64,000 bases of DNA from an uncultured Bacteriovoracaceae bacterium. Lineage in GTDB: Bacteria > Bdellovibrionota > UBA2428. The stretch lies in the NCBI GenBank assembly GCA_964477895.1, contig CAYZFQ010000011.1:23825-87824 (forward strand). Reading direction: 5' to 3'. The notes below the pieces were generated by a model. It was not told the DNA's origin. It saw only the letters and a list, made by a program, of their open reading frames with translations, and did not search any database. Below are positions 2-38,383 of the stretch, one piece after another. The position numbers and the translations under genes are program-made. Every line of letters begins with the position of its first letter. The stretch's first letter is position 1.

Positions 2-1639
2 ACCACGTCTCTGTGGGCGCGCACTATGGGAAGAGCTCTGACTGCCTTTGATCGTTTCCAAACTCAGCTCGAAAATGGCTATGAGAAAATTTTGATCAAA
101 ACTCTAGCTCATCCCATCAAAACCCTTCTTTTAGGATTGGGAGTCTTTGTCCTCAGTTTAGTGGCCGCAAAATTTGTTCCTAAAACCTTCTTACCGGCCC
201 AAGACACTGGAGAGTTTTCCGTGGGACTCGACATGCCTCCGGGAACCAGTTTGGATTCCATGTCGCAGACCGCGCAAAAAATCGACGAGATCGTGCGCTC
301 TCACAAAGAAGTGCGAACGGCGGTTTTGACAACCGGAAGTCGGGATGGGGAAGCCAACATAGCCGAAATGTTTGTGGAACTCGTACCCGCCCGCGAACGA
401 AATAAAAATACAAGTGAAGTCAAAGATGCCATCCGAGAAGGGTTGAAAGATTTTGCCTATGCCAATCCTAAGGTCAAAGACTTCGACGCCGTGGGAGCCG
501 GCCAACGCCCTTTTAACGTGAACATTATCGGAGACGATTTGGGAGCGCTTGAAAAATACACCGCCCAGGTCTTTGAGAAGATTCGCCACAACCCCGCCCT
601 CAAAGATCCTGACATTTCGTACCGACCGGGTAAACCTGAATTCCAAATCGTTCTGGATAATAAAAAATCTGAGCGCATGGGAGTTTCGGGAAATCTTCTG
701 GGCCTTGAACTGCGCACTCAAATTGAAGGAGCTAAGCCTGCCGTTTTTCGTGAGAACAGTCGTGAGTACGACATCCGAGTGCGTCTCAAAGATGACCAAC
801 GAAATCTAAAAAATGACTTTGCTCAGGTGTATGTTCCCAACATCAACAACACTCTTGTAAAACTTTCCAACGTAGCCCAACCTGTGGAAACCACCGGCCC
901 AGCCAATATCAACCGTCAAGACCGTGGTCGTTATGTGCAGATTTCAGCCGACATTGCACCCGACGGACCCGGGATGGCAGGAGCCACTCAATTGGTAAGA
1001 GATATTATCAGCAAGGAACTACCCTTGCCCCCGGGTATGCGCTACGCCTTTGTAGGACAGGCTGAGAACTTTGCGGAGTTAATGCAAAATATGCTTGTGG
1101 CGGCTGGCCTTGGGGTTTTGTTTATCTATTTAGTGCTCGCCTCCCTCTATGAGTCTTTCGTAACACCCTTTACCATCATGTTGGTTCTTCCTTTGGCAGC
1201 CTGCGGTGCCTTCTACGCCCTACTTATTTCGGGAAAATCTCTCGACCTTTTTTCCATGATTGGCTGTATCATGCTGCTGGGAGTCGCCACAAAAAACTCC
1301 ATTCTTCTTGTGGATTATACCAATCAAATGCTGGCCGAAGGCATGAACCGACGGGACGCCATCATTCGAGCTGGGAAAGTTCGCTTGCGCCCCATTCTCA
1401 TGACAACCTTCGCCCTTATTGCAGGAATGATCCCCATTGCAGTAGGGTTGAATGAAGCGTCAAAACAGCGCACTTCTATGGGTATTGCCATCATCGGGGG
1501 TTTGATCAGCTCCACCTTATTAACTCTTGTCGTGGTGCCCGCGGCCTTTAGTTATGTGGATCGCTTCCGAGTGTGGATTGGGAAATTTTCCGCAAAGATT
1601 GCCGGCACAGCCTCTGCCACTCCTGGGAGTCATTCATGA
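2..1639 (+). CDS. RND (HAE1/AcrB-like) efflux transporter permease, C-terminal half. The 5' end lies outside the window.
   Basis: The ORF is open to the window edge. The 537-aa translation has the second transmembrane bundle and periplasmic loop architecture of AcrB/MexB-type pumps, ending ...LISSTLLTLVVVPAAFSYVDRF. The reading frame has no stop from base 2. Confidence 0.8.
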   Translation, partial: TTSLWARTMGRALTAFDRFQTQLENGYEKILIKTLAHPIKTLLLGLGVFVLSLVAAKFVPKTFLPAQDTGEFSVGLDMPPGTSLDSMSQTAQKIDEIVRSHKEVRTAVLTTGSRDGEANIAEMFVELVPARERNKNTSEVKDAIREGLKDFAYANPKVKDFDAVGAGQRPFNVNIIGDDLGALEKYTAQVFEKIRHNPALKDPDISYRPGKPEFQIVLDNKKSERMGVSGNLLGLELRTQIEGAKPAVFRENSREYDIRVRLKDDQRNLKNDFAQVYVPNINNTLVKLSNVAQPVETTGPANINRQDRGRYVQISADIAPDGPGMAGATQLVRDIISKELPLPPGMRYAFVGQAENFAELMQNMLVAAGLGVLFIYLVLASLYESFVTPFTIMLVLPLAACGAFYALLISGKSLDLFSMIGCIMLLGVATKNSILLVDYTNQMLAEGMNRRDAIIRAGKVRLRPILMTTFALIAGMIPIAVGLNEASKQRTSMGIAIIGGLISSTLLTLVVVPAAFSYVDRFRVWIGKFSAKIAGTASATPGSHS

Positions 1640-4005
1640 GTTCACATGCCGTAACTACGGCAGTTATACTTGCAGCTGGGGCCGGAGAACGCATTCGTGA
1701 TTCTGAAAAGGGTTTGCCTAAACCTCTCGTGGTTCTGGGGGGACTCTATCTGCTCGAGCGTTCCATCTTAAACTTGGATGCTTGCGGAATTAAGCGCTTT
1801 CGAGTGGTCTTAGGCTACCGCGGACAAGAAATTGAGCGAGTGATTCGCAGTTGCAAAAATCTCGTGAGCTTTAAAATTGAATTTCTTTACAATCCCGACT
1901 TCGAAAAAGGAAACGGCTCTTCGCTCGCCAAAGGAGTGGAAGGTCTCCAGGAGCCCTTTCTTTTGACCATGGCCGACCACCTCTTCGGTCCCGACACCCT
2001 TCGACAATTTATTTCCAAAGCTCTTTTAAACGGCGAACGAGCCCAACTTGGGACGGATAAAAACATCAAAGGTGTTTTTGACCTTCCTGATGCCACTAAG
2101 GTTTTAAGTGAAGCCGGCCGAATTGAAAAAATCGGCAAAGAACTTAGTGACTTCAACGAAATCGATACCGGGCTTTTTTATTTCCCTGAGTGGAGTCCGG
2201 AAAAAATTCAAAGCTCTTTTGCTCAAGGAGCAGATTCCGTAAGTGAAATCGTAGCCGAGATTCGCAAAGATCATGGGTTTTTCACGACTTCTTTGGATAA
2301 TGCTTTTTGGCAGGACGTGGACACGCCCGAGATGAAAAAAGAAGCTGAGCGCAGATTGTTTCGCTCTTTGATTAAGCCCACCGACGGTCCCGTGAGCAAA
2401 AAAATTAACCGTAACTTTTCCTTGCCTGTGAGCAAAATTCTTATCCAACTCGGAATAAGTCCCAACGCTGTCACCACCTTTGTTTTTTTATTTACCCTCG
2501 GTGGAGCCGCCCTCGCCACGTCCACCGATTATATGTGGGTGGCTGTGGCGGGCCTCATTTTTCAGATCGCCTCTATTTTAGATGGTTGCGATGGGGAGAT
2601 CGCCCGCCTAACCTACCAAGGCACGGAAGCCGGCGCGTGGTATGACACGCTTACCGACAATGTGCGCTATGGCGTTTTCTTTTGCGCCTTGGGTGTGCAC
2701 GGCTACCGAGTTTCGGGAGAAACCTACTACCTTTGGGCCATGGCCCTCTTTGCACTTTTACTAACCTACATGGTGAGCATGAATGTGAGCTACCTTCGAG
2801 CCACTCGGTCCAAAGGCACGGGACTGGTGGTGACGGCTCAGGTGGAAAAACTCATGGCCGAGCGCCAGAGCTTTTGGGATCGGTACATTTTGGGAGCCCG
2901 CGTCTTGGTGAAGCAGGATGTGAGCGCCCTCATTGTTTTTATCTGTTGCTTGGCGAATCGGCCCACCTGGATTTTCTGGGGCGGCTTTGTTGGCATTGCC
3001 GCCATGACATTTACAGTGGCGCGAGCCCTTAAAGCCGCCTTGCCCGCAAATTCTCAAGGCTCTCCTAAGATTCGAAGTCTATTTTTTCTTCTTATTGGTG
3101 TGATTATTTTTGCCTATCTTTTGAAGAAAATCGACGCCACGGCGGTGGTGGAAGCTATTAGCCATTTGGGCTCCAGCGTTTTTGTAGCCTTCGCAGTGGC
3201 ACCTCTATGGTTTTTTTTCAATTCTCTTAGCCTTCGCACGCTGCTTAAAAACCGGGTTGGTATTTTTGATTTGCTCTACAACCAAGTGGTGGGTGAATCC
3301 TTTAATGTTTTGATTCCCATGGCGGGTTTAGGCGGCGAACCTTACAAAACCAAGCACCTCACGAAATGGGTAGGCCTGGAAGACGCCACCCACGCCATCA
3401 TCAATGACAAACTGCTGCATATTTTGTCGGGCAACGTTTTTACAGCTTTACTTATGTTCTTTGTGTTGGCTGCTGTGCCCATGGAAGGAGCTACTAAAAG
3501 TGCATTGCTTCTCACCACAGTAGCCGTTTCGGGAATTTCACTTTTTATGATCTTGGTGACTCTCTCGCCACTCCCCACTAAATACGCAGGTCGCCTTCTC
3601 AAAAAGTTCAAAATGCTCGACCAGGCCCGAGCAAGCCACGTCCCCCTCGGCACCTATGCCCTCTCATTTTTGTACAAAATGCTCGCTCGAGCTCCTCAGC
3701 TCTTGGAAACCTATATTATCTTTAAACTCCTCGGCGTTGAAACATCTTGGGTGAATATGATCGCGGTAACTGGCCTTATCTCGGCCTCTGCCATGGTCTT
3801 CTTTTTCATTCCCCAGGGAATCGGCGTGAATGAAGGCGGCGTGGTGAAAGCCTTTTCTTTACTCGGTTTAAGCAGTCCTTTGGGTTTGACTTTCGGCATC
3901 ATTCGTCGAGCCCGGGTTGTGTTCTGGGCCGTGGCCGGTATCCTATTGTACGCAACTGTAAGTTTAGTGCAGAAAGGGAGCGCCACATGGAGACCCAGTT
4001 CTTAG
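1636..4005 (+). CDS. Three-domain membrane enzyme: N-terminal nucleotidyltransferase (cytidylyltransferase-like), central CDP-alcohol phosphotransferase, C-terminal flippase-like / LPG-synthase-TM-like domain.
   Basis: ATG at 1636 overlaps the RND stop (ATGA) and follows GGGAG. N-terminus AVILAAGAGERIRD matches the GxGxR NTP-transferase motif. The exact CDP-OH phosphotransferase signature D-G-x2-A-R-x8-G-x3-D-x3-D is present (DGEIARLTYQGTEAGAWYDTLTD). The C-terminal roughly 300 aa is polytopic and resembles the flippase-like domain found fused to lipid-modifying enzymes. Confidence 0.7.
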   Translation: MSSHAVTTAVILAAGAGERIRDSEKGLPKPLVVLGGLYLLERSILNLDACGIKRFRVVLGYRGQEIERVIRSCKNLVSFKIEFLYNPDFEKGNGSSLAKGVEGLQEPFLLTMADHLFGPDTLRQFISKALLNGERAQLGTDKNIKGVFDLPDATKVLSEAGRIEKIGKELSDFNEIDTGLFYFPEWSPEKIQSSFAQGADSVSEIVAEIRKDHGFFTTSLDNAFWQDVDTPEMKKEAERRLFRSLIKPTDGPVSKKINRNFSLPVSKILIQLGISPNAVTTFVFLFTLGGAALATSTDYMWVAVAGLIFQIASILDGCDGEIARLTYQGTEAGAWYDTLTDNVRYGVFFCALGVHGYRVSGETYYLWAMALFALLLTYMVSMNVSYLRATRSKGTGLVVTAQVEKLMAERQSFWDRYILGARVLVKQDVSALIVFICCLANRPTWIFWGGFVGIAAMTFTVARALKAALPANSQGSPKIRSLFFLLIGVIIFAYLLKKIDATAVVEAISHLGSSVFVAFAVAPLWFFFNSLSLRTLLKNRVGIFDLLYNQVVGESFNVLIPMAGLGGEPYKTKHLTKWVGLEDATHAIINDKLLHILSGNVFTALLMFFVLAAVPMEGATKSALLLTTVAVSGISLFMILVTLSPLPTKYAGRLLKKFKMLDQARASHVPLGTYALSFLYKMLARAPQLLETYIIFKLLGVETSWVNMIAVTGLISASAMVFFFIPQGIGVNEGGVVKAFSLLGLSSPLGLTFGIIRRARVVFWAVAGILLYATVSLVQKGSATWRPSS

Positions 4006-4679
4006 CCAAAAGTTTTTTGTTTTTAGCAGGAGTGCAATGCCTGGCCTCGGGCGCGGCCTCAGACTGCAAAACTTTGGAGAATTTTTCTTCCTCTGAAGCA
4101 GGAAAGTTTCCCTTGGGTTGGATTTCTAAATATCCCGAGCACATGCCCGAGATTCTAGAGAAGAAGCTCTACATTGTAGCTCAAGATTCCGGCTTCAAAG
4201 CCGTCCATGCCACCTATGGAAATCATACCGTCACGATTTTGCGCGAACTCAAGGACTCGTGGAATCTGAGTGAGTACCCCATTTTGAAGTGGAAGTGGAA
4301 GGCCGTAAAACTTCCCAAAGATGCCAACGAAGACAAACTTAAGAAGAACGACTCTGCGGCTTCGGTCTATGTGGCCTGGAAATCCAACTCCCTCATGAAA
4401 GCCAAAGCCATTCGATACGCTTGGAGCAGCACTCAGCCTATTGGAGCTCATTTTTCCCGAAGATTTGGCAACGACCAAATCTCCATCAAAGAGAGCGGCA
4501 CATCGAAACTAAACACCTGGGTAGAAGTCGAAACAAATGTTTTAGACGACTACAAAAAATACATGAAGGAACGCAAAGCTCCCGCGAACCCCATTGCCTT
4601 AGTCCTAACCACCGACGCCGACGCGACCCAATCAGAAGCTGAAGCCTTCTATGCTGACTTTAGGATTTGTCGACCTTAA
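3987..4679 (+). CDS. Secreted hypothetical protein, DUF3047-like.
   Basis: Overlaps the upstream gene by 19 nt. Signal-peptide-like N-terminus (FLFLAGVQCLASGAAS). About 220 aa, with lysine- and tryptophan-rich motifs typical of DUF3047. Confidence 0.5.
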   Translation: METQFLAKSFLFLAGVQCLASGAASDCKTLENFSSSEAGKFPLGWISKYPEHMPEILEKKLYIVAQDSGFKAVHATYGNHTVTILRELKDSWNLSEYPILKWKWKAVKLPKDANEDKLKKNDSAASVYVAWKSNSLMKAKAIRYAWSSTQPIGAHFSRRFGNDQISIKESGTSKLNTWVEVETNVLDDYKKYMKERKAPANPIALVLTTDADATQSEAEAFYADFRICRP

Positions 4680-5662
4680 CTTTCGTCTTCAATCTCAAAG
4701 ATCCAGTCGCGGATGGACTGCCTGAAGAGATGTGAATTTTTTGAAAATTCAAAGGCATGTTCGGATTCCATTTCCTGGATTTGCAAATAGGAACCCCGAT
4801 ACTTATCATTGTAAAAATTTCTAATTGCCTCATTATCCACAATCCGGTCGTCGGAGGCTAAAAATATCAACAAGGGGGCCTTGAGCTGCTGGGATTCTTT
4901 TAACAAAGTTTTGCGAAGTTTTCTCGTGATAAAAAGCATGCGGGTGGTGACTTTGCGCAATCCCCAAAGGTCTTGCTGAATCCACTCTAAACCCTCACCC
5001 GAATCGATAAAGGCCCGATCATCTAAGGGGGTAGGAAAATCCTGCTGCTTTAAAGGCAGAAGAACATCCAAGACCGAGGCGAAACCCAATACGGTTTTTT
5101 CCAGAGGCTGGAAATCTCCATTCTTTTTATTCATATGTGTGGAGGGCGAACTTAAAATTACAGAACGAATTATAGATTCGTTTCTGGTTGCAACGGGCAC
5201 AACCAAGCGAGCCCCAAAACAATTGCCAAAAATATGTATAGGAAGATTTTGCCCTTTTAAAAATTCAATTCCCGCCTGCACATCATTAAAGAGATCTCGA
5301 CTGCTTCCTGCGTGGCCACGAACTCCACGACTATGACCCGAACCTCGGCGATCGAGCGCTAATACGGTAATTCCATGCTGAGCCAAATACACTGCCGTTT
5401 TGCGGTGCCACTCTGAGTGACTCTGCATCCCAGCGATCATCAATAACGCGGCTCGGGGTTGGCGGGCTTTTACAAAAAGGGCCGACAAAGAATGCTGGTC
5501 CTTAAAAAGCAAAGGGACTGAAATGCGATGAAGCTGAGCCGAAGCCAGGTAAGGGATTTTGTCTTCCTTATGAACAATTCCTGAAACAAAGCGAAAGGGC
5601 TGTAGAGCCACCGACCACTGACTTAAGAAACATCCTAAGAAAGCAAGGCGGCCTATATTCAT
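4676..5662 (-). CDS. Alpha/beta-fold hydrolase with a Cys in the nucleophile-elbow position (GNCFG).
   Basis: HGITVLALDRRGSGHS, then the nucleophile elbow IHIFGNCFGARL, a downstream Asp (LASDDRIV) and a C-terminal His (SEHAFE). Start codon overlaps the upstream stop (ATGA). Confidence 0.7.
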   Translation of the reverse strand: MNIGRLAFLGCFLSQWSVALQPFRFVSGIVHKEDKIPYLASAQLHRISVPLLFKDQHSLSALFVKARQPRAALLMIAGMQSHSEWHRKTAVYLAQHGITVLALDRRGSGHSRGVRGHAGSSRDLFNDVQAGIEFLKGQNLPIHIFGNCFGARLVVPVATRNESIIRSVILSSPSTHMNKKNGDFQPLEKTVLGFASVLDVLLPLKQQDFPTPLDDRAFIDSGEGLEWIQQDLWGLRKVTTRMLFITRKLRKTLLKESQQLKAPLLIFLASDDRIVDNEAIRNFYNDKYRGSYLQIQEMESEHAFEFSKNSHLFRQSIRDWIFEIEDES

Positions 5663-6777
5663 ATGGTTTTTTCGAGGCCCAGGCCCTGCAAAGGTCCGGG
5701 CCCGAAGGTGTCGGGGTAGTTTAACAATCCGCCGCGACCAAACATCACCACAGGAGACACTGTGTCCTTTTCCAAAAGAAGAGTCCCAAAGGCGCCTTCC
5801 TGAGCCACCAAAGAGGGTCCACTAGCGCGGGCAACAGTCAGAGCAGCCCGCGAGAGCACAGAAGTCTCGCCCACTTGCGCGCCCACGATAATTCCAAAAT
5901 TCTCACGTCGAAGAATTTCAACAAGCTCGAGCGAACGCAGAAGACCACCCACCTTAGAAACTCGCAAATTAGTGATCCAACGCCCCGGCAGGTCTTTATA
6001 AAGATTCACATCGTCGGCTCGGCAAAGACTTTCATCCAATACAATGCCACACCCCAAGGCCACACTCAGTTGACTTAAACCTTCGGCATCCCGAGGAGCC
6101 AAGGCTTCTTCTATTGCAAAAAGCGGCACGGGAACCTGGCGCAGATAGGCCAAAGCCGCTTCGAGACGTCCCGCCCAAACATTGTTCCCATCCAACCGCA
6201 AACGAAGCTTGCCCTGGAGTCCCTTTGTTTCAGACAAAGATTTAAAAAGAAGAAACTTTTCCTCATCGGCCTTAAAATCTTCTGAAATTTTAAATTTAAA
6301 ATCGGTGAATCCCATATCCATGTAGGTAGTCAGAATTCGTGAAAATTTTTCACCCTTCTCATCACTGAGAACGGCCGTATATTGAAATTTTCCGTCTAAG
6401 GGTGGGATGCCCAGAAGTTCCTCTACACTGATCGACTTTTCTCGGGCCAAGAGATCGAGCAAGGCAATTTCCATAGCTGCCCAGGCCGCGGGATTAAGGT
6501 CAATTTCATTTTTAATCTCTGCAGAAAAGGTCTTGAGCTCCGTCAATGACCTGAGGTTTTCCAAGCGCGACGTCAACGTGTTTAACCACTCAATCGCTCC
6601 TGCGGTAGTTTCTCCTGTCACATACGATCGGGGACAGCCTTCTCCCAGCCCGGCAACTCCACCGCGCTTGGCTTCCACCCACACGCTGTCTGAGACTTTT
6701 CGCTCAGCGGAAGCGTGTTTAAAACTGCTTTTCATAGGAATTTGAATTTGTTCAATCGAGAAGAAAATCTGAGTCAT
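5659..6777 (-). CDS. Enolase-superfamily enzyme, MLE subgroup (N-acylamino-acid racemase / dipeptide epimerase / o-succinylbenzoate synthase-like).
   Basis: KxK motif (FKFKISEDF). Metal ligands D (LRLDGNNVW), E (AIEEAL), D (IVLDESL). Second catalytic Lys in NLRVSKVGGLL. Confidence 0.75.
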   Translation of the reverse strand: MTQIFFSIEQIQIPMKSSFKHASAERKVSDSVWVEAKRGGVAGLGEGCPRSYVTGETTAGAIEWLNTLTSRLENLRSLTELKTFSAEIKNEIDLNPAAWAAMEIALLDLLAREKSISVEELLGIPPLDGKFQYTAVLSDEKGEKFSRILTTYMDMGFTDFKFKISEDFKADEEKFLLFKSLSETKGLQGKLRLRLDGNNVWAGRLEAALAYLRQVPVPLFAIEEALAPRDAEGLSQLSVALGCGIVLDESLCRADDVNLYKDLPGRWITNLRVSKVGGLLRSLELVEILRRENFGIIVGAQVGETSVLSRAALTVARASGPSLVAQEGAFGTLLLEKDTVSPVVMFGRGGLLNYPDTFGPGPLQGLGLEKTI

Positions 6778-6783
6778 TTTTTC

Positions 6784-8577
6784 CTATACCGCCATTTGTG
6801 GGCCTTCGTCAGGCACCTTGGCTTCTTCTGCAGCTACTTCAGGAGCTATGAGATCGTCTGTTGCCGTTGCGATATCAACCACCGCATGATTAGCAAAGCT
6901 AAACTTCACATCTTTTTTGTACTGTAGAGCAATAATCTTAAATTGGGATTCACGCTGCCCTTGCTTCAGACAAAACTTTTTAAATTCCTCAAAAGTTCCG
7001 GGCTTCAAAACCAAAAGCTCCAAAGACAAGAGTCGGCCACTCTTGCGCTTGACATCGTATTCCACGTTGATCTCGGTAAGCCCCTTTTCCACCAATTCTA
7101 CGAGTTCACGGCGCTTGGCCGCGGCCTCTTCCAAATCTTCTACCTTAGGCTCATAAATCAAACGGTAAACGGCTCGATCGGGGTCCGCAATCATCATGTA
7201 AAATGACGAAGAGAGCTGCAAAGCATTCTCAGCCTGGCGCAAGCCAAAAATCACCTGAGACTCATAGAGCTTCTCTCCGGTAATATTGGTGACACCCTTG
7301 CCTTTTTGAACGAAACGCAAAAGAGGTGCCTTGTGGAAAAAACCATCCACCTGCACAATATCGTTCATATTGTAACGATAAAGTCCGCTATCCGTGGTTA
7401 CAAAAATATAATACTGAGACTGATCTTTGAGCTGACCCAATCCGATAAAGTTATGTCTCTCGGCTTCCCAGTCATCTTTTTCTACGAACTCAAAAAAGTA
7501 ATCTCGGAAAGTTGGCACGCCGGCATTGGTGTCCGAAGAAATGGGTACGGTGCCCCGAAACTCCGACGACAAATACCCAATGTCGCGAACCAAAGTGGTC
7601 GGAGGAAATTCATTCTTTAGCTGTTCAAAAAAGATGGCGCAGGAGCCGCCCGTCCAACAGCCCACGGCTTGCAAATCTGGGAAAACATCCTGAATGCGCA
7701 GGCGACCCCGTCGCTTATAAACTTCGTTAAGTTCTTCGGCCCAGGCTCTTTTCGCACCCAGCCGACCCACTAAAGAACGACGCTGTTCCACCGAAAGCTC
7801 TTCCATTCGAGAGAAACCACCGTCGCGCAAGTCCTTGAAGAGCTCTTCCCAGTGAGAATTTAAAAGTTTTACCAGTCGAACGATCGTGCTCGGATTGGCG
7901 GTACTGAGGTACGACACATCCCGGTAGCGGAGCGCTAAGCGCAGAATAAGTTGGTATTTCAAATCATAGTCTTCGATGGAAAAAATTGGCGGCGGTACGA
8001 TATATTTTTTCCGCACTAACTTGGGCATTCCTTGATACATATGGCCTGATGTTGAGCCAAAGCTTGCTCCGGAGTCGGGTCGGTAGCCTTCAATCGCTGG
8101 GCTTACAATAGCGAGAATATGCCCCTTCAGCACGTCCGGACGATCTTTCATCAAGCGGTAAACAAACAAATTCGTGATGTGCTTATGAGAGCGCAAGGTG
8201 GTTTTTAGGACCGGAATAAACTTTGGCTTGCCCGTAGTGCCACTCGTCATGGCATAAAAACTAGGCAAATCCGGATTAATGGTGGGTCGCCCGGTGAGGT
8301 CTTGGCTATCCATCCACGAGCGAAGCGACTCATAGTCATGCACGGGAACATACTTACGAAAATCCGAGAGTTTTTCGATGAGGTTAAACTTATGAATTTT
8401 ACCAAAATAAGTTTCTTGGTGGTCTTCAAGAATTTTTTTCAACAGCCTAAACTGCGCCCCATCAACATCTTTAGCGTCTTTCTCAAGGGCCTCATAAAGC
8501 CGAGCCCCCTCAGTCTTGACTCGCAGCTCCATTAAAGTGTTTACAAATTTGCCTTTAACGCGACTCGTAACTTTCAT
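6784..8577 (-). CDS. GH3-family acyl-acid amido synthetase (adenylate-forming, auxin-responsive GH3-like).
   Basis: All three GH3 motifs are present: MTSGTTGKPKFIPV, GYLSSEF and YRYNMNDIVQV. 597 aa. Confidence 0.75.
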   Translation of the reverse strand: MKVTSRVKGKFVNTLMELRVKTEGARLYEALEKDAKDVDGAQFRLLKKILEDHQETYFGKIHKFNLIEKLSDFRKYVPVHDYESLRSWMDSQDLTGRPTINPDLPSFYAMTSGTTGKPKFIPVLKTTLRSHKHITNLFVYRLMKDRPDVLKGHILAIVSPAIEGYRPDSGASFGSTSGHMYQGMPKLVRKKYIVPPPIFSIEDYDLKYQLILRLALRYRDVSYLSTANPSTIVRLVKLLNSHWEELFKDLRDGGFSRMEELSVEQRRSLVGRLGAKRAWAEELNEVYKRRGRLRIQDVFPDLQAVGCWTGGSCAIFFEQLKNEFPPTTLVRDIGYLSSEFRGTVPISSDTNAGVPTFRDYFFEFVEKDDWEAERHNFIGLGQLKDQSQYYIFVTTDSGLYRYNMNDIVQVDGFFHKAPLLRFVQKGKGVTNITGEKLYESQVIFGLRQAENALQLSSSFYMMIADPDRAVYRLIYEPKVEDLEEAAAKRRELVELVEKGLTEINVEYDVKRKSGRLLSLELLVLKPGTFEEFKKFCLKQGQRESQFKIIALQYKKDVKFSFANHAVVDIATATDDLIAPEVAAEEAKVPDEGPQMAV

Positions 8578-8727
8578 TCAGGTCCTTTCAAAAGAGGAAA
8601 GTCTTTGAGAATACAAAGCCTTCGCCGAACAAAATATGCCCCGCATCATCAACCAAGGCAAGAGATTGAACCCTATGGATGGATATTAAATACAGATACT
8701 TAGGTCTCGTAAAGTTTTATTAAGTCC

Positions 8728-9816
8728 CTAGAGCGAGGTTCCAGGCGGGATTTGAGTCTTGTCGTGAGCATCTATATTAAAATCAGGCGGGAAAAGCGCC
8801 AAAGTGTGGGGACCGCGCGCGGGAATATCGGCCGACACGGCCGTGGCACGGAATGTAACTAAATTAAAGTTATTTAGCAGCTGAGCTTCGGTGTACCACG
8901 TGATTTTACCCGGAATCGAATCAGCGACGGCGTACTCGTAGGCACTATCAGGGTTTTCACTGGGTCGACCATAACCTACCACGGTCATCGCGTGTCCCAC
9001 GTTATCAAAGGTCACAGGCCAATTACCATCCAGCGATCGCCGCACCATCAAAGGAAGTTGGCGGCGATCCATTCGATAGCCCCAGTAGCGTGACTCGAGA
9101 TATTTCACCCAACCCACATTGGCGTCGCTCACGGGTTTGACCAAGACAAAATCATTTACGGTAGATTCCTGAGAAAAATCCGAGCCCAATATCTTAGAAG
9201 CCGACTCTTTTATGGCAATCTCTTCACTTAAAAATGTCGTCCGCACTTGGGCCTCACCGTATTTGGCAGTGAGAAAATCTCGAATGAAAATGTCGGCGCT
9301 AGCGAAGTCTGAAAATTCATTGCTGAGGAGGCGCTCTTTAGCCCTCGGAAACGAAAGACTCGCATCTGCTGCTACGCGGGAAATGTTTTCAAATGGCAGG
9401 TGAATGTTGAAGTTCTGAAACAAAGGATAGACAATATCACTCGTGGCGCTTGCTGCCGAACGCGCAAGAGATTTGCCGTGCTTGATCAAAGTTTCAAAGA
9501 ATTCAATCTGCCACCCCCCCTCATAATCGTCGAGAAAGAAGTCTTTTTTAGACTGATGAATATAGTGCATCCGCTCAAAGTCCACCCAAAATTTTACATC
9601 TCGCTCCACCTCAATCATCACGTCTAGATTCTCGCGACTCAGCGCTCGCGATTCCAAAAGGTGGCTCATGGAATAAGCCCAACAGTGAGCCGTAGTCCCT
9701 TGATCGCGCAAAGTCTTAAGTGGCAAACGCACCCCACCCCAAAGCGAGCCGAGAATTCCCAAGGAAAAATACACTCCGACAAAAGCACGAAGCGCAAAAA
9801 AATTAAAATTGATCAT
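8728..9816 (-). CDS. Papain-like (C1 family-like) cysteine peptidase, secreted or membrane-anchored.
   Basis: QGTTAHCWAYSMSH resembles the QGxCGSCWAF catalytic-Cys motif. NVGHAMTVVGYG resembles the catalytic-His HAVxxVGYG motif. Hydrophobic N-terminus. Confidence 0.6.
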   Translation of the reverse strand: MINFNFFALRAFVGVYFSLGILGSLWGGVRLPLKTLRDQGTTAHCWAYSMSHLLESRALSRENLDVMIEVERDVKFWVDFERMHYIHQSKKDFFLDDYEGGWQIEFFETLIKHGKSLARSAASATSDIVYPLFQNFNIHLPFENISRVAADASLSFPRAKERLLSNEFSDFASADIFIRDFLTAKYGEAQVRTTFLSEEIAIKESASKILGSDFSQESTVNDFVLVKPVSDANVGWVKYLESRYWGYRMDRRQLPLMVRRSLDGNWPVTFDNVGHAMTVVGYGRPSENPDSAYEYAVADSIPGKITWYTEAQLLNNFNLVTFRATAVSADIPARGPHTLALFPPDFNIDAHDKTQIPPGTSL

Positions 9817-17190: not shown

Positions 17191-18349
17191 AAGACTCATC
17201 TCGCCCCCCTCTACTCAAAGTTTTTTTCTCCTGGGGCCTCGGGGGAGCGGAAAATCAACGTGGCTAAAGACCCATTTCAAAAAGGAAGAAAGTCTCTGGA
17301 TTGATTTGCTCGTGCAAAAAACTGAGCTCAGTCTGGCTCAAGACCCAGATTCTCTCTTGGAAATGTGGCATGGAGCCGGCAAGCCAAAATGGGCTGTCAT
17401 CGATGAGATTCAAAAGTTGCCTGCCCTCCTTGATGTCGTACATCGAGGCATTGAAGAGCATAAGATTCGTTTTGCTCTGACGGGTTCGAGCGCCAGAAAA
17501 CTTCGTAAGGGGCATGCCAATCTACTTGGTGGACGAGCCATAGAGATCCATCTGATGCCCTTTTCCTCACTTGAGCTCGGGAAAGATTTTAAACTCGATC
17601 AAGCCTTGAAGTTTGGTCTTTTGCCACGACTGTGGTCAGACCCCAAAATGACGGACGGCGATCGATCCGACCTTCTCTATTCTTATGTGAGCACCTATCT
17701 GCGTGAAGAGGTTGCAGCAGAACAGCTCGTGCGAAATTTGGACCCCTTCCGAAGATTTTTGCTGGCAGCCGCCCAGTGCAATACGGAACCTTTGAACTAT
17801 TCTAAGATTGGTCGCGATGCCGGGGTAGATTCTAAACAGGTCGAGCGCCATTTTGAGATTCTAGGCGATACCTTGATTGGTAACTATTTGGAACCCTTCC
17901 ATCGATCTGTTCGTAAACGACAAACTGCCAAGAGTAAGTTTTATTTTTTTGATACGGGAGTCGTGAGAGCCTTAACAAATTTAGCGGGCGAGTCCTTGCA
18001 TTCCTCAACTTATGAATATGGAAAACTATTCGAGTCATTTTTGATCAACGAATTCTATAAGCTTCGATCGGGACTCAATAAACGCTGGAATTTTTCGTTT
18101 CTCCGAAGCGAAGACAACGCAGAAATTGACCTCATTGTGGAAAAACCACGGGGAAAGCCCATCCTTGTTGAAATCAAGTCGTTCACGAAGATAACCACGG
18201 AGTCCGTGGCTTCCTTCTCTCGCCTGGCCAAGAAAATGGCACACGAGGAAGCTTTTTTGTTGTCCAATGCCACAACGGCCATCGAGCGAGACGGAATTCG
18301 CTGCGTCAACTGGAAAGAGGGATTGAAAGAAATTTTTATGGTGCCCTAA
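17183..18349 (+). CDS. AAA+ superfamily ATPase with C-terminal DUF4143 (COG1373-type).
   Basis: Walker A LLGPRGSGKSTWL, with DUF4143-like C-terminal half. I chose the ATG at 17183 (388 aa, Walker A about 17 aa from the start). The ORF-track start at 17057 would make the palindrome coding sequence. Confidence 0.75.
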   Translation: MYQRLISPPSTQSFFLLGPRGSGKSTWLKTHFKKEESLWIDLLVQKTELSLAQDPDSLLEMWHGAGKPKWAVIDEIQKLPALLDVVHRGIEEHKIRFALTGSSARKLRKGHANLLGGRAIEIHLMPFSSLELGKDFKLDQALKFGLLPRLWSDPKMTDGDRSDLLYSYVSTYLREEVAAEQLVRNLDPFRRFLLAAAQCNTEPLNYSKIGRDAGVDSKQVERHFEILGDTLIGNYLEPFHRSVRKRQTAKSKFYFFDTGVVRALTNLAGESLHSSTYEYGKLFESFLINEFYKLRSGLNKRWNFSFLRSEDNAEIDLIVEKPRGKPILVEIKSFTKITTESVASFSRLAKKMAHEEAFLLSNATTAIERDGIRCVNWKEGLKEIFMVP

Positions 18350-18425
18350 GGGAGAATCGAACTCCCACGACCTTGCGGCCGGTGGATTTTGAGTCCACTG
18401 CGTCTACCAATTCCGCCATCAGGGC
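18339..18425 (-). tRNA. tRNA-Leu (anticodon CAA).
   Basis: The reverse complement reads GCCCTGATGGCGGAATTGGTAGACGCAGTGGACTCAAAATCCACCGGCCGCAAGGTCGTGGGAGTTCGATTCTCCCTTAGGGCACCA. It has a 7-bp acceptor stem with one G-U pair, the anticodon loop CTCAAAA, a long variable arm, the T-loop TTCGATT and an encoded CCA. It overlaps the ATPase stop codon. Confidence 0.8.
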
Positions 18426-30451: not shown

Positions 30452-32482
30452 GTGGAAAAAATTCTTCTTTTTCCACTCCGCGCTCGCTTTGAGGATTCAT
30501 TTTTAACTTCACTCTCTGCAGGCTCTCAAAGCTGGAGCTTTTTTAATCTATCCGAATGGATTCGCATCGCCATGGATTTGCCCAGGCCTCCACCCGAAGC
30601 CAAAGTCGCGGCCCTTTTGTTTTTGCAAAAAGAAAATCCTGAACTTTCCGTGAATGATTTGAATGAAGAGCTGGATATTTTTGCCGAGCTCCATAGCTTA
30701 GCCGTGCCCTTCACGACCTGGTCTCAAATTTTGACCGACTTTGAAAGTGGGGATGCCGAGCTTCACTTGTGGACCGCGAGGATCTTACGATACCTAAGCC
30801 TAGAGGCCCGCTTTCAAAGCAGAGCTGAGATTTTTTTCCCGGGGCATATTCTAGAAAGATTTTTGCAAAGCGAAGAGACCGAGAATCTTGGTCAGGGCAT
30901 TTTGCACCTTTCAACCCTCATGTCCCTTAGCCCCCTCGAAAGAAGGGTTGTGGAAAAAATCAGAAAGTCACGGCCGGTGGAAGAATTAGCGATTTGCCCC
31001 GACGAAGAGAGTTTCCCGGAAGACCTTTTCATATGGAATTCGGAAGCCAAGTTACCAGGCCTTCTCGAGCAGCGCCTGCGTTTTTCTGGGAGCAAAAAGC
31101 TACTTTTAAATCAGAAGCCTCAAATTAGAATTCCAGAAAAATGGCGGAACTTTAAAAGCTTTTTAGAAGCACAAGAAGATTTCCCCTTTACAAAGAGCTT
31201 TGAATTTTCGGGAGAGATCAAAGACTGGGTGAAAATATTTGTGGAGTTGAAAGTAAGAGAGGCTCAAAACCTGGAAGGCGCCACGGCCCTCCTCCTCCAA
31301 CCCATAGAGGCTGCCATGTTTCCATGGAGAAAGGCCCAGATCCTGCCTAGCCCCCTGCCTTTAAAAAATCGAGGGCAGATAGGCCCAAGACTTCCTGGCG
31401 GTATCCGTGGCCTTTTAGAATCCAACGGTCATCAACTCCCCCATCTGAGTCGGGAAGAAAAAAACCTTGAAGCCGCCCTTGATGATATTTCCAAAAGAGA
31501 ACTGAGTCTTTTCACCTCGCCCTCCAATACATCGGGCAGTATTGCGCGCTTAGACCTAGCCCCTCGCTTTAAGACTCAAGTCCTATTGCCCGAACAAATC
31601 TCTCCTTCGGGCCTGGAAGCCCTGAGTCGTTGCTCGGCGGCCTACCTTTTCTCCAATATAGAACGCCTAGATTTTTCTCAAGCCAACGAAGAACGCCTCG
31701 ATCCGCGTCTACTAGGATCCCTTGTGCACAAAGTCTTAGAGAAATTTCTGGGGACGCCAGATTTTAAATCTGTAAAAAGCCAAGTGGAAAAAATTTTTTC
31801 CGATGAAAAATCGAATTTTTTTAAGGATCTTTCTGCAATGGAGTCGGCATTCCTAGAGAGTCGAACTGAGATCTTGTGTGAAGAACTCTCTTTCCATATC
31901 GAAACCTTTGAAAAAGATCTCTTTGAGCTTTTTCCTGCACGAAAAATCGAGACCGAAAAAGTCCTGGCCGCACCTTTAAACAACATGCGTATCCGTGGCC
32001 GGGTGGACCGCCTCGATGAAATTCCTTCGGACGCTGCGCCGCCCTGGTACCTTCTCTTTGATTATAAAACCGGCAAGAACACAGGCAAGGCTTTGACTCA
32101 GGTAAAAAATGCCAAGTTTCAGTTCTTTATTTACCGCGAAATGCTAATTCAGCTGAAATCTCGAGTGGGTGCGGGCGGCTACCTCAATCCCCTAGATCCC
32201 GAGAAATCATCCCTTTTTATATTGGAAGATTTTCCTCAGTTAGAAAAACTTAAAGGGCTCTACTCTAGGCATGGACATAGCTGTGAGATACTCAGTGCTA
32301 GTCTACTTGAAGAAATCAAAGAAAAGCTCAGCTACTTTTTGGCTTCGGCTCAAGAAGTCTTTAACACCAAAACTTTCATAGCCGAACCTTTGACTAAATC
32401 TCAGTGCGGACTTTGCGACTATCGCTTTGTTTGCGGTCGTCCCCATTTTTTAAAAGAAGGCAGCACTGATGGCACGACGTGA
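30452..32482 (+). CDS. AddB/RexB-like subunit: divergent N-terminus, C-terminal PD-(D/E)XK nuclease with Fe-S cysteines.
   Basis: GRVDRLDEIP...LLFDYKTGK...QFFIY (D/DxK/QxxxY nuclease motifs). CGLCDYRFVCG (CxxCx5C) after an upstream Cys. No Walker A is visible. Confidence 0.5.
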   Translation: MEKILLFPLRARFEDSFLTSLSAGSQSWSFFNLSEWIRIAMDLPRPPPEAKVAALLFLQKENPELSVNDLNEELDIFAELHSLAVPFTTWSQILTDFESGDAELHLWTARILRYLSLEARFQSRAEIFFPGHILERFLQSEETENLGQGILHLSTLMSLSPLERRVVEKIRKSRPVEELAICPDEESFPEDLFIWNSEAKLPGLLEQRLRFSGSKKLLLNQKPQIRIPEKWRNFKSFLEAQEDFPFTKSFEFSGEIKDWVKIFVELKVREAQNLEGATALLLQPIEAAMFPWRKAQILPSPLPLKNRGQIGPRLPGGIRGLLESNGHQLPHLSREEKNLEAALDDISKRELSLFTSPSNTSGSIARLDLAPRFKTQVLLPEQISPSGLEALSRCSAAYLFSNIERLDFSQANEERLDPRLLGSLVHKVLEKFLGTPDFKSVKSQVEKIFSDEKSNFFKDLSAMESAFLESRTEILCEELSFHIETFEKDLFELFPARKIETEKVLAAPLNNMRIRGRVDRLDEIPSDAAPPWYLLFDYKTGKNTGKALTQVKNAKFQFFIYREMLIQLKSRVGAGGYLNPLDPEKSSLFILEDFPQLEKLKGLYSRHGHSCEILSASLLEEIKEKLSYFLASAQEVFNTKTFIAEPLTKSQCGLCDYRFVCGRPHFLKEGSTDGTT

Positions 32483-34775
32483 ATTAGTAGAGGCCGGTGC
32501 GGGCTGCGGAAAAACTGAATCCCTTGTTCGGCGCTATGCTTCGGCCTTGGGCTGGGATTTAGCTAGCGGAAATTCGCTTTATAAATCACAGCAATCCCTT
32601 CGACCCCGGCAAATTATAGCTCTGACCTTTACCGAGGAAGCGGCTCGCCAAATGCAAGAGCGCTTGACCCAGCGCTTAAAAGGCATCGGTCAAGAAAACC
32701 TGGCCAAGGACGTCGAAGAAGAAGGACAAATTTCCACCTTCCACGGACTTTGCCTGCGCCTGATTCGACCCCACTTGGTAAAACTTGGCTATAAGTCCCA
32801 CCAAGTTCTTCTTCCAAGTTTAGCTCGACTCCTTCGCCGCGAGCACATTATCAAAGCACTCTCTGAGCATCCCGAGAGAAAAGAGATCATCAAAGCCTTT
32901 AGCCCCGCCCAAATTGCCGACATGGGGGCGGACTTTTGGTTTGACCTCAAAGAGCTGGATGCCACTACCGTTAAAAGCTTTTACCTCCTGCAAAATCAGT
33001 CTTTCGCTCATTTCAGAAAAACGTGGCAAGAGTTTTTTGACCATCACCTCTCAGAGGATATTTTTCGGGAACTCAAAGAAGGAACTTGGGTGCAGGCCTT
33101 TCAGCATTTTTTAGAAGATCCTCGAGCCACAGGCCTTGAGTCCTGGAATTTTCGTGGGGCTAAAAAAGTTTCCGATTCTTACCCCCAACTTCAAAGGGCT
33201 GCAAAAAACTACCGAGACTTTCTACTCTCAGGCTATGCCCAGGCTCTCAGCGATGGCTCAGTGGAAGCCGAAATTCATTTATCTCAGGCGCTTATTCACT
33301 TTCTTAAGGACGCAGTAGCTTCTGGCCCCAAAATTCTCGATTTCACTGCCCTTGAAAAAGAACTTTCCGCCCTCATTGACCGTGGGGACTTTGAGCAAAA
33401 ACCTTGTGCCTTACTTATTGTGGATGAGTTCCAAGACACCAACCGAGCTCAGTTTAAAATTCTTCGCGCCCTCTCGGGCGAGCAAACAGATTGGTATTTT
33501 GTGGGCGATCCGAAGCAAAGTATCTACGGATTTCGTGGCGCCGATGTTTCACTCTTTTTAGAGCTGAGAGAGCAACTTGACCGAGTGGAACTCGATACCA
33601 ACTATCGATCTGAAGCCCCGGTCCTTAGTTTCACCAATGAAGCTCAAGAACTACTATTTCAAAGCCGCTTGGCAACGAGTTCACATGAAAAACACTACGA
33701 CCCACCTGCGCAGACGCTCAAAGTGGGACGCAAAGCTACAGGGGCAGAATCTGGGGTCAATGTTCAGACCTTTGCAAAAGACAATGACGGCGAAGCCGAG
33801 CTCGCCCTCTTGCACGATTTAGGCGAAAGCTTTAACGACGAAACGGCTTCCAGCCGCGCCCTGCTTTTTCTCAGCTGGCGCGAACTTTACCGCTACACTG
33901 AAATCCTGGATCAACATGAAGTCCGCTATGAAATCGCGGGCTCCCAGAATTTTCTACAGAGCCCCTTAACTGAAATTTTCGCTCATTTTTTAACAGATTT
34001 AGGAAATGAGAATAAAAACCAAGGGCTTTTTGAAATTTCGCGTTGGCGAAATATTCAAGGAGAAACCTCAGCCTTCCAGCTAAAAAAGGACTTTCAAAGC
34101 TTTGGCTTTAACCCCGAAAGCTTTGCTCATGATTCCCCCTTAGACCTTTTAGATAAATTCTCCACTCTAGTTAAAGCGGCAGACATGAAGGGCGGACCCG
34201 AGTGGACGGCCTCCATGGAGCGACTCCTCCTGGAACTCAGTGACCTAGACTTTGATCTCCATTTTAGCCCCGCGCGACTGGCTATTTTTCTTCAGCGAAA
34301 TATTCGAAAGCTTGAGGCCTCAGTCCCGTCCTTTAAAAATTCTGAGTCAGCAGGTACTCTTAGACTTTTAACTATCCATGGCTCCAAGGGCTTGGAATTT
34401 GACCATGTTTTTTTGCCGGAACTTTATGAGAGCCGCAGTCGCGCAAGTAGCGGCAGCCTGAGTGGGGAAGAGGGACTCAGCATCAAAGTCCCCGAGCCCT
34501 CACTTTTTTTTGAGGCCAAACGCCATGAAGAAAAAATTAAAAAAGAAGCAGAAATGCGAAGACTTTTTTATGTGGCCCTGACCCGGGCTAAGGCCAAAAT
34601 TTTTATTTACACAACTGAGATCTCTGACTCTAAGCGCAGTGAGAAAGCAAATCCTTTTGAGGTTCTGGGATGGCCCGAGCCTAGGATTACGCTTTGGAAT
34701 GAGCTTTTAGGTTGTTTAGGAAAGGCCGAAATCGAAATAGATCGGAATGGCGCCGAGGCCTCCAGTCCTGCTTAA
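32469..34775 (+). CDS. UvrD/AddA-like superfamily-1 helicase without a C-terminal nuclease domain.
   Basis: AGAGCGKT (Walker A), TFTEEAARQMQERL, LLIVDEFQDTN, TNYRSEAPVL, TIHGSKGLEFDHVFL, FYVALTRAKAKIF. 768 aa ending right after motif VI. 14-nt overlap with the upstream gene. Confidence 0.8.
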   Translation: MARRELVEAGAGCGKTESLVRRYASALGWDLASGNSLYKSQQSLRPRQIIALTFTEEAARQMQERLTQRLKGIGQENLAKDVEEEGQISTFHGLCLRLIRPHLVKLGYKSHQVLLPSLARLLRREHIIKALSEHPERKEIIKAFSPAQIADMGADFWFDLKELDATTVKSFYLLQNQSFAHFRKTWQEFFDHHLSEDIFRELKEGTWVQAFQHFLEDPRATGLESWNFRGAKKVSDSYPQLQRAAKNYRDFLLSGYAQALSDGSVEAEIHLSQALIHFLKDAVASGPKILDFTALEKELSALIDRGDFEQKPCALLIVDEFQDTNRAQFKILRALSGEQTDWYFVGDPKQSIYGFRGADVSLFLELREQLDRVELDTNYRSEAPVLSFTNEAQELLFQSRLATSSHEKHYDPPAQTLKVGRKATGAESGVNVQTFAKDNDGEAELALLHDLGESFNDETASSRALLFLSWRELYRYTEILDQHEVRYEIAGSQNFLQSPLTEIFAHFLTDLGNENKNQGLFEISRWRNIQGETSAFQLKKDFQSFGFNPESFAHDSPLDLLDKFSTLVKAADMKGGPEWTASMERLLLELSDLDFDLHFSPARLAIFLQRNIRKLEASVPSFKNSESAGTLRLLTIHGSKGLEFDHVFLPELYESRSRASSGSLSGEEGLSIKVPEPSLFFEAKRHEEKIKKEAEMRRLFYVALTRAKAKIFIYTTEISDSKRSEKANPFEVLGWPEPRITLWNELLGCLGKAEIEIDRNGAEASSPA

Positions 34776-37482: not shown

Positions 37483-37739
37483 GACTTCCAAAGATCTTCA
37501 TCGATCTGGCGTTGAAGGGTAATTTCTTCCTCGATACGAAGAGCCTCTTTTTCGGTTAACGAACCCACGACTTCGCTAAAATCTCTTTTAGGCCGAAGAG
37601 TCTCACCCGCCCCAGCGCTTAAGGCTTCCAAGGCAACTTGATTAAAGCTTTTACCAGCCAATTTGGCCCTTCTTTTCAAAGCTCGATCCACGGGGTCGGG
37701 GATATTGCGAATGGTGTATTGTCTTGCAGGCTTTGACAT
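37479..37739 (-). CDS. vapB: VapB/FitA-like antitoxin (ribbon-helix-helix family).
   Basis: MSKPARQYTIRNIPDPVDRALKRRAKLAGKSFNQVALEAL. I prefer the ATG at 37739 over the upstream TTG-initiated extension. Confidence 0.65.
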   Translation of the reverse strand: MSKPARQYTIRNIPDPVDRALKRRAKLAGKSFNQVALEALSAGAGETLRPKRDFSEVVGSLTEKEALRIEEEITLQRQIDEDLWKS

Positions 37740-37775
37740 GTATACATTGTATACGAAGTATGTATACAAAGTCAA
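37739..37775. promoter_or_regulatory. vapBC promoter/operator with three GTATAC palindromes.
   Basis: The minus strand reads TTGACT-n16-TATACA-n8-ATG. (T)GTATAC(A) occurs at 37739-37746, 37748-37755 and 37761-37768. Confidence 0.45.
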
Positions 37776-38355: not shown

Positions 38356-38383
38356 ACCGGAAACTTAAGGAACGAGAGCAAAC

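Follow-up and report, generated by a model that had tools for sequence, protein, structure and literature searches.

Bacterial GH3 proteins were first assigned a function in 2025, with OlsH, a GH3-like enzyme of Singulisphaera acidiphila that uses free fatty acid, ATP and Mg2+ to synthesise N-acyl-ornithine (PMC12493201). The alpha/beta hydrolase OlsI O-acylates the N-acyl-ornithine, the head-group modifier OlsG is encoded between OlsH and OlsI, and the authors of that work consider it probable that thousands of GH3 homologues produce other N-acyl amino acids, by routes not yet described (PMC12493201). Here we describe a three-gene minus-strand operon that encodes a GH3-family ligase, a member of the MLE subgroup of the enolase superfamily (hereafter the enolase) and a Cys-nucleophile alpha/beta hydrolase. 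It lies in a 64,000-nucleotide stretch of DNA (the window) from an uncultured Bacteriovoracaceae bacterium of the phylum Bdellovibrionota (assembly GCA_964477895.1, contig CAYZFQ010000011.1, positions 23,825 to 87,824). The best sequence hits likewise fell in Bdellovibrionota. The layout is that of the OlsH/OlsI locus with the enolase gene in the middle position of OlsG, although OlsG is a methyltransferase; this parallel suggests an N-acyl amino acid as the product and not the salvage of a free amino acid. We regard the operon as a new form of GH3-dependent aminolipid synthesis, with inferred chemistry. Its features in the window are as follows.

6784..8577, minus strand: GH3-family ligase gene, open reading frame (ORF) of 597 aa
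5659..6777, minus strand: enolase-superfamily (MLE subgroup) gene, ORF of 372 aa
4676..5662, minus strand: Cys-nucleophile alpha/beta hydrolase gene, ORF of 328 aa
8578..8727, minus strand: intergenic region of 150 nt 5' of GH3, presumed to contain the promoter, as read from the sequence

The sequence of the junctions shows a 6-nt gap between GH3 and enolase ('TAG gaaaaa ATG') and an ATGA stop/start overlap between enolase and hydrolase ('ATATGA'), so the tight packing described in the first-pass annotation of this DNA is borne out by ORFs and junctions alike. The GH3 gene has an AAAGGA ribosome-binding site about 7 nt 5' of its ATG, and the 3' end of the operon abuts a convergent DUF3047 gene. 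A consensus promoter and terminator scan of positions 4300-9100 returned nothing above shuffled expectation; the boundaries of the operon are therefore set by gene spacing alone, and the promoter is a presumed one.

The conservation of the operon was analysed in two collections. Aligned sequences of the enolase clade served as the query against a genome set with one representative per GTDB species; at least 555 species matched, and 80 loci were fetched and sorted by ORF calling and phmmer (locus labels beginning with L are our own). An alignment of the GH3 clade was scanned against metagenome contigs and gave at least 480 matches; 80 loci were fetched, of which 70, those with at least 600 bp 3' of GH3, were assessable. 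The genome loci fell into four groups.

38/80 genome loci: FAH (a PF04116 hydroxylase), GH3 and enolase, with FAH and GH3 separate or fused
10/80 genome loci: GH3 and enolase without FAH, almost all in Bdellovibrionota
23/80 genome loci: enolase with a C-terminal alpha/beta hydrolase in one ORF, no GH3 within 10 kb
9/80 genome loci: enolase without any of these partners

GH3 was directly 5' of the enolase in 48 of the 80 genome loci, and the enolase was directly 3' of GH3 in 69 of the 70 assessable metagenome loci, 62 of which also carried the PF04116 hydroxylase, fused or adjacent to GH3. The order GH3 then enolase is far beyond chance, and the two form a near-obligate pair in more than 10 phyla and hundreds of bacterial species. 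The 48 genome pairs are carried by Acidobacteriota, Beta- and Gammaproteobacteria, Nitrospinaceae, Verrucomicrobiales, Gemmatimonadales, Poribacteria, Methylomirabilia and Bdellovibrionota. One metagenome-assembled genome of the Acidobacteriota encodes a complete GH3 (N, M and C domains) together with MR_MLE_N and MR_MLE_C in a single ORF of 1196 aa (L064:7481-11071); the FAH part of this locus is partly in another frame, and an assembly error may have removed a stop codon. That GH3 and enolase are a functional unit, as was proposed from the window alone, is thus supported both by near-obligate synteny and by a locus with the two in one ORF. The only meaningful NCBIfam match of FAH was OlsE, which hydroxylates the head group of ornithine lipids (201-205 bits over the full length, below the equivalog cutoff of 475), and we refer to it as the OlsE-like hydroxylase.

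The hydrolase is far less constant. It continues the operon in three of the ten FAH-less genome pairs and is present in four metagenome GH3 loci but absent from the other 66. The full trio was found in the window and in L004, L010, L013 (Bacteriovorax stolpii), L084, L086 and L087, and in L088 GH3 is followed by the hydrolase without an enolase. The window trio is a patchy elaboration of Bdellovibrionota, and the conserved core is GH3 plus enolase; of the three-gene neighbourhood first put forward, the pair holds and the third gene varies. The closest relatives of the window locus illustrate this variation: L165 (72% GH3 identity) retains only a decayed Ser-type hydrolase remnant, upstream, L164 (67%) has an EamA exporter as the third gene, and L166 (65%) has no third gene. 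Agmatine deiminase-like (PAD_porph) and CN_hydrolase genes follow the exporter in L164 (L164:8984-11905), a set that resembles a putrescine pathway. In two other Bdellovibrionota loci (L001:2743-6510 and L005:8241-11888) an SQS_PSY gene overlaps the 3' end of the enolase and replaces the hydrolase; its product scored 101 bits against the squalene synthase model, below the cutoff. Locus L084 (4034-9985) contains tandem GH3 paralogues (4034-5854 and 5992-7848), followed by the enolase and an exported Cys-hydrolase, which hints at two acid or amino-acid specificities feeding one pathway. Taken together, the GH3-enolase pair, usually accompanied by an OlsE-like hydroxylase, is more important and more general than the trio of the window.

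The window GH3 matched the N, M and C domains of the family with 188.8, 66.5 and 57.5 bits (Pfam PF03321, PF23571 and PF23572; cutoff 23.6 each). Its nucleotide-binding motifs are TSGTTGKPK (residues 111-119), GSTSGHMY (174-181) and YRYNMND (400-406), which correspond to the family patterns SSGTTxGxxK, GS(S/T)xG and YRxGD, and their key residues, as well as the lysine of a C-terminal QFK, are unchanged across 13 clade members, in line with the three motifs first reported for this protein. Members of the clade are 40-49% identical, and most are fused or adjacent to the OlsE-like hydroxylase, a further likeness to the OlsH system. Against the NCBIfam model of OlsH (NF052613) the window protein scored 89.9 bits in two partial stretches, about 90 bits against a cutoff of 620, and a GH3 paralogue of L084 scored 93.5 bits; by these scores the window GH3 belongs to a bacterial clade separate from OlsH. 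The best PDB matches were the plant enzymes GH3.15, GH3.12 and JAR1, at 60-89 bits. With plant GH3 proteins (JAR1, GH3.12/PBS3, GH3.15) the window protein shares the three-domain fold and the nucleotide-binding motifs, and presumably the two-step chemistry, in which adenylation precedes the formation of an amide with an amino acid, whereas the plant substrates are hormones and the plant genes have no operon partners. The window GH3 is predicted to be an ATP-dependent ligase that joins a (fatty) acid to an amino acid.

The enolase matched MR_MLE_C and MR_MLE_N of Pfam with 61 and 30 bits. Its catalytic set (K161-x-K163, D196, E223 and D248) is unchanged in 145 sequences, and K275 is unchanged in all 111 GH3-linked enolases but not in all 145 relatives. 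By its residues, with the KxK and the second lysine at the ends of strands 2 and 6, and by its predicted (beta/alpha)7beta barrel and capping domain the protein falls into the MLE subgroup, and the complete KxK/D/E/D/K set named in the earlier reading was recovered. The AlphaFold2 model (predicted local distance difference test score 89.8) had as top Foldseek matches the dipeptide epimerases 3jva, 1jpm and 3ik4, the N-succinyl-Arg/Lys racemase 2p88 and the N-acylamino acid racemase (NAAAR) 2zc8; template-modelling (TM) scores against MLE-subgroup structures were 0.8-0.88 at 20-24% identity, with 0.80 for NAAAR 2zc8. The same ranking was obtained from sequence profiles, in which o-succinylbenzoate synthase and N-succinylamino acid racemase (OSBS/NSAR) entries came last.

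Dipeptide epimerase 3jva: 142 bits
N-succinyl-Arg/Lys racemase 2p88: 140 bits
YkfB 1jpm: 128 bits
Most muconate cycloisomerases: about 70-82 bits, some down to about 57
N-acylamino acid racemases: 57-61 bits
OSBS/NSAR PDB entries: 47-56 bits

The enolase reached no NCBIfam equivalog cutoff (MenC, DgcA, AE epimerase or MLE), by wide margins. The best single match was menC_lowGC_arch (73.1 bits, cutoff 200.65), and the DgcA model (64.6 bits, cutoff 400), a second MenC model (51.2 bits, cutoff 130.55) and two dipeptide epimerase equivalogs (44.9 and 42.6 bits, cutoffs 343 and 500) were matched more weakly. An assignment as OSBS (MenC) was rejected on these scores, on the 47-56 bits of OSBS/NSAR entries against 128-142 bits for epimerases, and on the lack of men genes among the conserved neighbours in 160 loci; the clustering with OSBS of menaquinone operons that had been named as grounds for abandoning the first proposal was not seen, the nearest relatives being epimerases and racemases.

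The enzymes closest to it in structure and in sequence all act as epimerases at the alpha-carbon of N-acylated amino acids. The dipeptide epimerases (1jpm YkfB, 3jva, 3ik4 and 3q45) and 2p88 resemble the window enolase in fold (TM 0.8-0.88) and in the KxK/D/E/D/K residues, and they react at the alpha-carbon of an amine-acylated amino acid. The differences are equally clear: beyond the low identity (20-24%) and the missed equivalog cutoffs, dipeptide epimerases have a DxD motif where the window enolase has Q326-E327-G328, the first Asp of 3jva aligning with Q326, and E327 is unchanged in the 145 enolase sequences. The DxD motif, which follows strand 8, binds the N-terminal ammonium of the substrate of dipeptide epimerases. 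Its replacement by Q-E-G therefore argues that the acyl part of the substrate is probably not an aminoacyl group and fits a fatty or other uncharged acyl group. The partners differ as well, with GH3, OlsE-like hydroxylase and Cys-hydrolase here as opposed to the peptidoglycan-recycling or succinyl-transferase contexts of dipeptide epimerases and 2p88. The enolase most likely abstracts the alpha-proton of an N-acyl amino acid, and epimerase activity is favoured. The locus as a whole, judged by sequence, works like OlsH/OlsI without its proteins belonging to either family, and its enolase is like AE epimerase and NSAR without clear membership of either; its fold and residues are compatible with the racemases of N-acyl and N-succinyl amino acids (NSAR/NAAAR).

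The hydrolase matched Hydrolase_4 (PF12146) with 114.3 bits (cutoff 27) and also Abhydrolase_1, with a triad of Cys148 at the nucleophile elbow (GNCFG), Asp272 and His302. Cys148 and Asp272 are kept in 29 of 29 stand-alone and enolase-fused relatives, and His302 is His in 28 of them and a gap in one. The usual nucleophile of alpha/beta hydrolases is serine. Ser at the elbow is also the norm of the Hydrolase_4 family, whereas the window protein and all 29 relatives have Cys; the Cys-nucleophile assignment made at first reading is thereby upheld. Dienelactone hydrolase (PF01738) gave 25.2 bits for the whole protein (cutoff 21) with no single stretch passing, and judging from sequence the two have only the idea of a Cys nucleophile in common. 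In the PDB, the hydrolase comes closest to monoglyceride lipases, ABHD6 and a PHB depolymerase. Relatives were drawn from the fetched loci, since a word-based homologue search gave only three proteins, the family evolving too fast for searching of this kind.

Compared with OlsI, the window hydrolase is distinct: it gave no match to the OlsI model NF052614 at E<=0.01, its relatives scored only 16.6 and 22.8 bits in short local stretches (cutoff 385), and it has a Cys nucleophile where serine is usual among alpha/beta hydrolases and is predicted to be exported. As candidates for OlsH and OlsI themselves, the window GH3 and hydrolase were both rejected for missing the curated thresholds. Canonical Sec signal peptides with AxA-type sites were present in the hydrolases of L004, L010, L013, L084, L086 and L087 and in the alpha/beta hydrolase of L088, seven stand-alone proteins that all adjoin GH3, with or without an enolase; neither the enolase nor GH3 has a signal peptide. 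Since the ligase also requires ATP, GH3 and enolase should both be cytoplasmic, and the third step is then most likely extracytoplasmic, acting on a product that has left the cytoplasm. The Cys nucleophile implies an acyl-thioester intermediate, which suits acyl transfer as well as hydrolysis, and the protein is a predicted hydrolase or acyltransferase that would act outside the cytoplasm, through an acyl-enzyme (thioester), on a lipid product.

In a GH3-less sister clade of the enolase, the Cys-hydrolase family is fused at the C-terminus (23 of the 80 loci, L020-L074, e.g. L039:9995-12055). The window hydrolase is 23-26% identical to the fused hydrolase domain, with HGxxSHxxW, DRRG and the Cys elbow in common. 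A correlated swap of NLRVSK to NLKVSR, in which K275 becomes Arg together with R272K, was found in 21 of the 23 fusions and in 6 of the 9 enolase-only loci; owing to this swap of the lysine, the sister clade may catalyse a slightly different reaction from the GH3-linked clade. A protein with a PF13444 GNAT domain and a cyclic-nucleotide-binding domain adjoins the enolase in 5 of the 23 fusion loci and in the enolase-only loci L007 and L025; the fusion locus L057 also belongs to the cluster of these proteins, of which 7 of 8 members match PF13444. This domain is common to aminolipid N-acyltransferases and N-acyl amino acid synthases (PMC11631085), and a PF13444 protein in place of GH3 looks like an analogous replacement of the amide-forming enzyme.

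The fusions are usually either translationally coupled to a protein that we term U415 (356-731 aa) or beside the PF13444 GNAT and cyclic-nucleotide-binding protein, and histidine kinase and GGDEF-EAL genes are often near them. U415 had no Pfam, NCBIfam or PDB matches, and the idea that it is a cryptic PF13444/GNAT protein was dropped at an hhalign probability of 0.6%; a PilZ domain was present in the two long forms scanned (L074 and L027). These neighbours suggest that the fusion clade is under second-messenger control. In Latescibacteria (L002:6404-9131 and L003:173-2957) an enolase of the K275 type is directly 3' of an LCAT-like Ser lipase/acyltransferase that bears a signal peptide, without GH3 and with transposase fragments upstream.

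The FAH, PF13444 and LCAT-like partners point to an N-acylated, lipid-like amino acid as the product. In the pathway that we propose, cytoplasmic GH3 would activate a free carboxylic acid by adenylation, a fatty acid being the likeliest, and couple it as an amide to the alpha-amino group of an amino acid, a step drawn from the chemistry of the family and the OlsH precedent. The enolase would then bind the free alpha-carboxylate of this product on Mg2+, and its lysines K163 and K275 would remove and return the alpha-proton, which would turn an L head group into a D one or otherwise activate the alpha-carbon; this step is based on synteny, fold and catalytic residues, and epimerisation fits the retention in the GH3-linked clade of both lysines for a two-base 1,1-proton transfer. 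The product would leave the cytoplasm in a lineage-specific and least certain step, with which the EamA exporter of L164 is consistent. Outside, the exported Cys-His-Asp hydrolase might act through an acyl-thioester to add a second acyl chain, an OlsI-like function, or to remove one, whereas in other phyla the OlsE-like membrane hydroxylase would be the third member instead of the hydrolase. That the operon makes and tailors an N-acyl amino acid in this way (a lipoamino acid or lyso-aminolipid, probably fatty-acyl) is a reading to which we give slightly less than an even chance. It also comes close to the acyl-amino-acid maturation offered as one option in the first-pass annotation.

Several observations weigh against this pathway. 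The OlsH match of the window GH3 is partial and far below the cutoff, the window hydrolase does not match OlsI, and its hydrophobic N-terminus is a putative signal peptide less canonical than those of its orthologues. The window and other Bdellovibrionota loci lack an OlsE-like gene, so that the lipid context is borrowed from relatives of 40-49% identity, and the squalene/phytoene-synthase-like third gene of two Bdellovibrionota loci hints at an acid other than a plain fatty acid. The catalytic residues of the MLE subgroup are shared by epimerases, dehydratases and cycloisomerases alike, and we know of no report of aminolipid head groups with D configuration.

The sharing of these residues leaves room for an enolase that abstracts the alpha-proton and then carries out a beta-elimination or cyclisation, for example the dehydration to an enamide of a hydroxylated head group or of N-acyl-Ser/Thr. 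The MLE subgroup with the same KxK/D/E/D/K set includes dehydratases (OSBS and cis-3-hydroxy-L-proline dehydratase) and cycloisomerases, the window enolase has weak NCBIfam matches to all these types, the usual hydroxylase partner could install a leaving group, and the change of K275 to Arg with R272K in the sister clade would be unexpected for a strict two-base racemase. However, both lysines are kept in all 111 GH3-linked enolases, epimerases and racemases are the top structural and profile matches, above MLE and OSBS, and the Bdellovibrionota loci work without a hydroxylase. OlsE, moreover, reportedly hydroxylates C4 of ornithine (title of a study cited in PMC12971839), which is not the beta position. 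We consider elimination or cyclisation improbable, though it survives best among the alternatives.

A second alternative is the inversion or salvage of amino acids: GH3 would acylate a D- (or L-) amino acid, the enolase would racemise the conjugate, and stereoselective deacylation by the hydrolase would free the opposite enantiomer, for example to recover D-amino acids from the peptidoglycan of prey. As predators, Bdellovibrionota encounter D-amino acids, the closest relatives of the enolase racemise or epimerise N-acyl amino acids, and the loci with a PF13444 GNAT and an enolase-hydrolase fusion mirror a trio that acylates, racemises and deacylates. The same logic is established with unrelated enzymes: a Geobacillus pathway of N-succinyltransferase, NSAR and desuccinylase, said to have been described by Sakai et al. 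in 2006 (cited in PMC12006748), conjugates, racemises and deacylates, and DgcA acts as an N-acetyl-D-Glu racemase. With these precedents, the logic of such a route is not in itself new. Both the NSAR and DgcN/DgcA pathways combine an N-acylating enzyme with an enolase-superfamily racemase, and the former also has a deacylase, but their donor is succinyl- or acetyl-coenzyme A (CoA) used by a GNAT enzyme, as opposed to ATP and GH3, and they have no lipid-type partners; the NSAR deacylase is a cytoplasmic metallo-amidohydrolase and not a predicted exported Cys alpha/beta hydrolase.

The distribution of the genes also speaks against salvage, with 66 of the 70 GH3 loci lacking the hydrolase, 62 having the membrane OlsE-like hydroxylase, and the closest relatives of the window locus again without hydrolase. 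The stand-alone hydrolases are predicted to be exported while the ATP-dependent ligase is cytoplasmic, their relatives are lipases and not aminoacylases, and an ATP-dependent ligase with a membrane-anchored partner would be an odd means of attaching a transient handle. The release of a D-amino acid by hydrolysis, as envisaged at first, is thus weakened by the signal peptides, the lipase relatives and the loci without hydrolase, and we rate salvage as quite unlikely.

Synteny alone gives no order of steps, and the enolase might instead act before GH3 to prepare the acid or the amine, for example by racemising an alpha-substituted carboxylic acid; racemases of free acids such as mandelate racemase exist in the enolase superfamily. 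Yet the window enolase belongs with the MLE subgroup, nearest to enzymes of N-acylated amino acids, and not with the mandelate racemase (MR) subgroup, and its partners in GH3-less loci are of the N-acyltransferase or lipase type, so that this order of events seems to us distinctly unlikely. A route on a chorismate-derived acid, in which the hydrolase, an OSBS-like enolase and a GH3 ligase would parallel MenH, MenC and MenE (the same three fold classes of alpha/beta hydrolase, MLE-subgroup enzyme and adenylate-forming ligase) and which recalls plant GH3.12/PBS3 on isochorismate, is very improbable: GH3.12 is among the best PDB matches of GH3 and the best single NCBIfam match of the enolase is menC_lowGC_arch, but that match of 73 bits is far under its 200.65 cutoff, OSBS/NSAR thresholds and scores (47-56 against 128-142 bits for epimerases) fall short, the ligase is GH3 and not of the ANL/CoA-forming type, the conserved neighbours in 160 loci included no men or chorismate gene, a Cys nucleophile and predicted export set the hydrolase apart, and the OlsE-like partner does not fit.

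In the literature searched, with subscription-only papers outside its scope, we found no description of a GH3-enolase unit, with or without hydroxylase or hydrolase, which agrees with the initial impression that the combination was new; a 2026 aminolipid review and a 2024 ISME J review mention neither an enolase nor a racemase.

The genes that flank the operon were considered as members of the unit and rejected, as no homologues of the 362-aa protein, of DUF3047 or of the CDP-alcohol-transferase/LPG-synthase fusion were found beside the module in about 160 related loci. The 362-aa protein (8728-9816, minus strand), encoded 150 nt 5' of GH3 on the same strand, starts with a hydrophobic segment and falls into no family at the level of Pfam, NCBIfam or the PDB; motifs seen by eye (TAHCWAYS ... 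GHAMTVVGYG) are papain-like and suggest a divergent secreted cysteine peptidase. On the other side, an 810-aa fusion (1573-4005) of a nucleotidyltransferase, a CDP-alcohol phosphatidyltransferase and an LPG_synthase_TM/HpnL-like membrane domain overlaps the DUF3047 gene (3987-4679) and is convergent with the operon, beside which it is not kept elsewhere. Its top NCBIfam match was the archaeal-type inositol-1-phosphate cytidylyltransferase/di-inositol-phosphate-phosphate synthase (222 bits), and by this match it is an unusual inositol-phosphate or lipid head-group enzyme.

Further along the window, a sugar phosphotransferase system (PTS) block at 37663-43312 encodes EIIA (37663-38355), Enzyme I (38644-40383), EIICB (40380-41915) and a GH1 (phospho-)beta-glucosidase (41912-43312). 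With 58-59% GC against about 48% elsewhere in the window, it resembles an island for beta-glucoside uptake gained by horizontal transfer, unexpected in a Bdellovibrionota-like genome. The window also contains an AddAB-like pair, a PD-(D/E)XK nuclease (30452-32482) and a UvrD-type helicase (32469-34775), and a single tRNA gene on the minus strand (18342-18425).

The coupling of a large GH3 clade to an enolase makes a testable prediction of new lipoamino acids, possibly D-configured or modified at the alpha-carbon, in bacteria that are dominant in soils and in the deep ocean (Acidobacteriota, Nitrospinaceae, Gemmatimonadota and Beta- and Gammaproteobacteria) or that prey on other bacteria. More broadly, and only tentatively, the GH3-enolase pair could be a widespread, unrecognised branch of aminolipid synthesis in at least several hundred species of more than 10 phyla, usually with an OlsE-like hydroxylase, making N-acyl-D-amino acid lipids or surfactants, with export and a periplasmic Cys-hydrolase/acyltransferase in Bdellovibrionota and with a sister fusion under second-messenger control through its PilZ and cyclic-nucleotide-binding partners. 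All three enzymes of the window operon are soluble or easily truncated, and an N-acyl amino acid synthesis that is independent of CoA and acyl carrier protein and includes stereo-inversion would be useful for biosurfactant production. If true, the proposed pathway would contain the first enzyme of the enolase superfamily to act on a membrane lipid and yield the first D-configured class of aminolipids, and it would give a function to a sizeable orphan clade of this well-studied superfamily and bring to light a lipase-like family with a Cys nucleophile.

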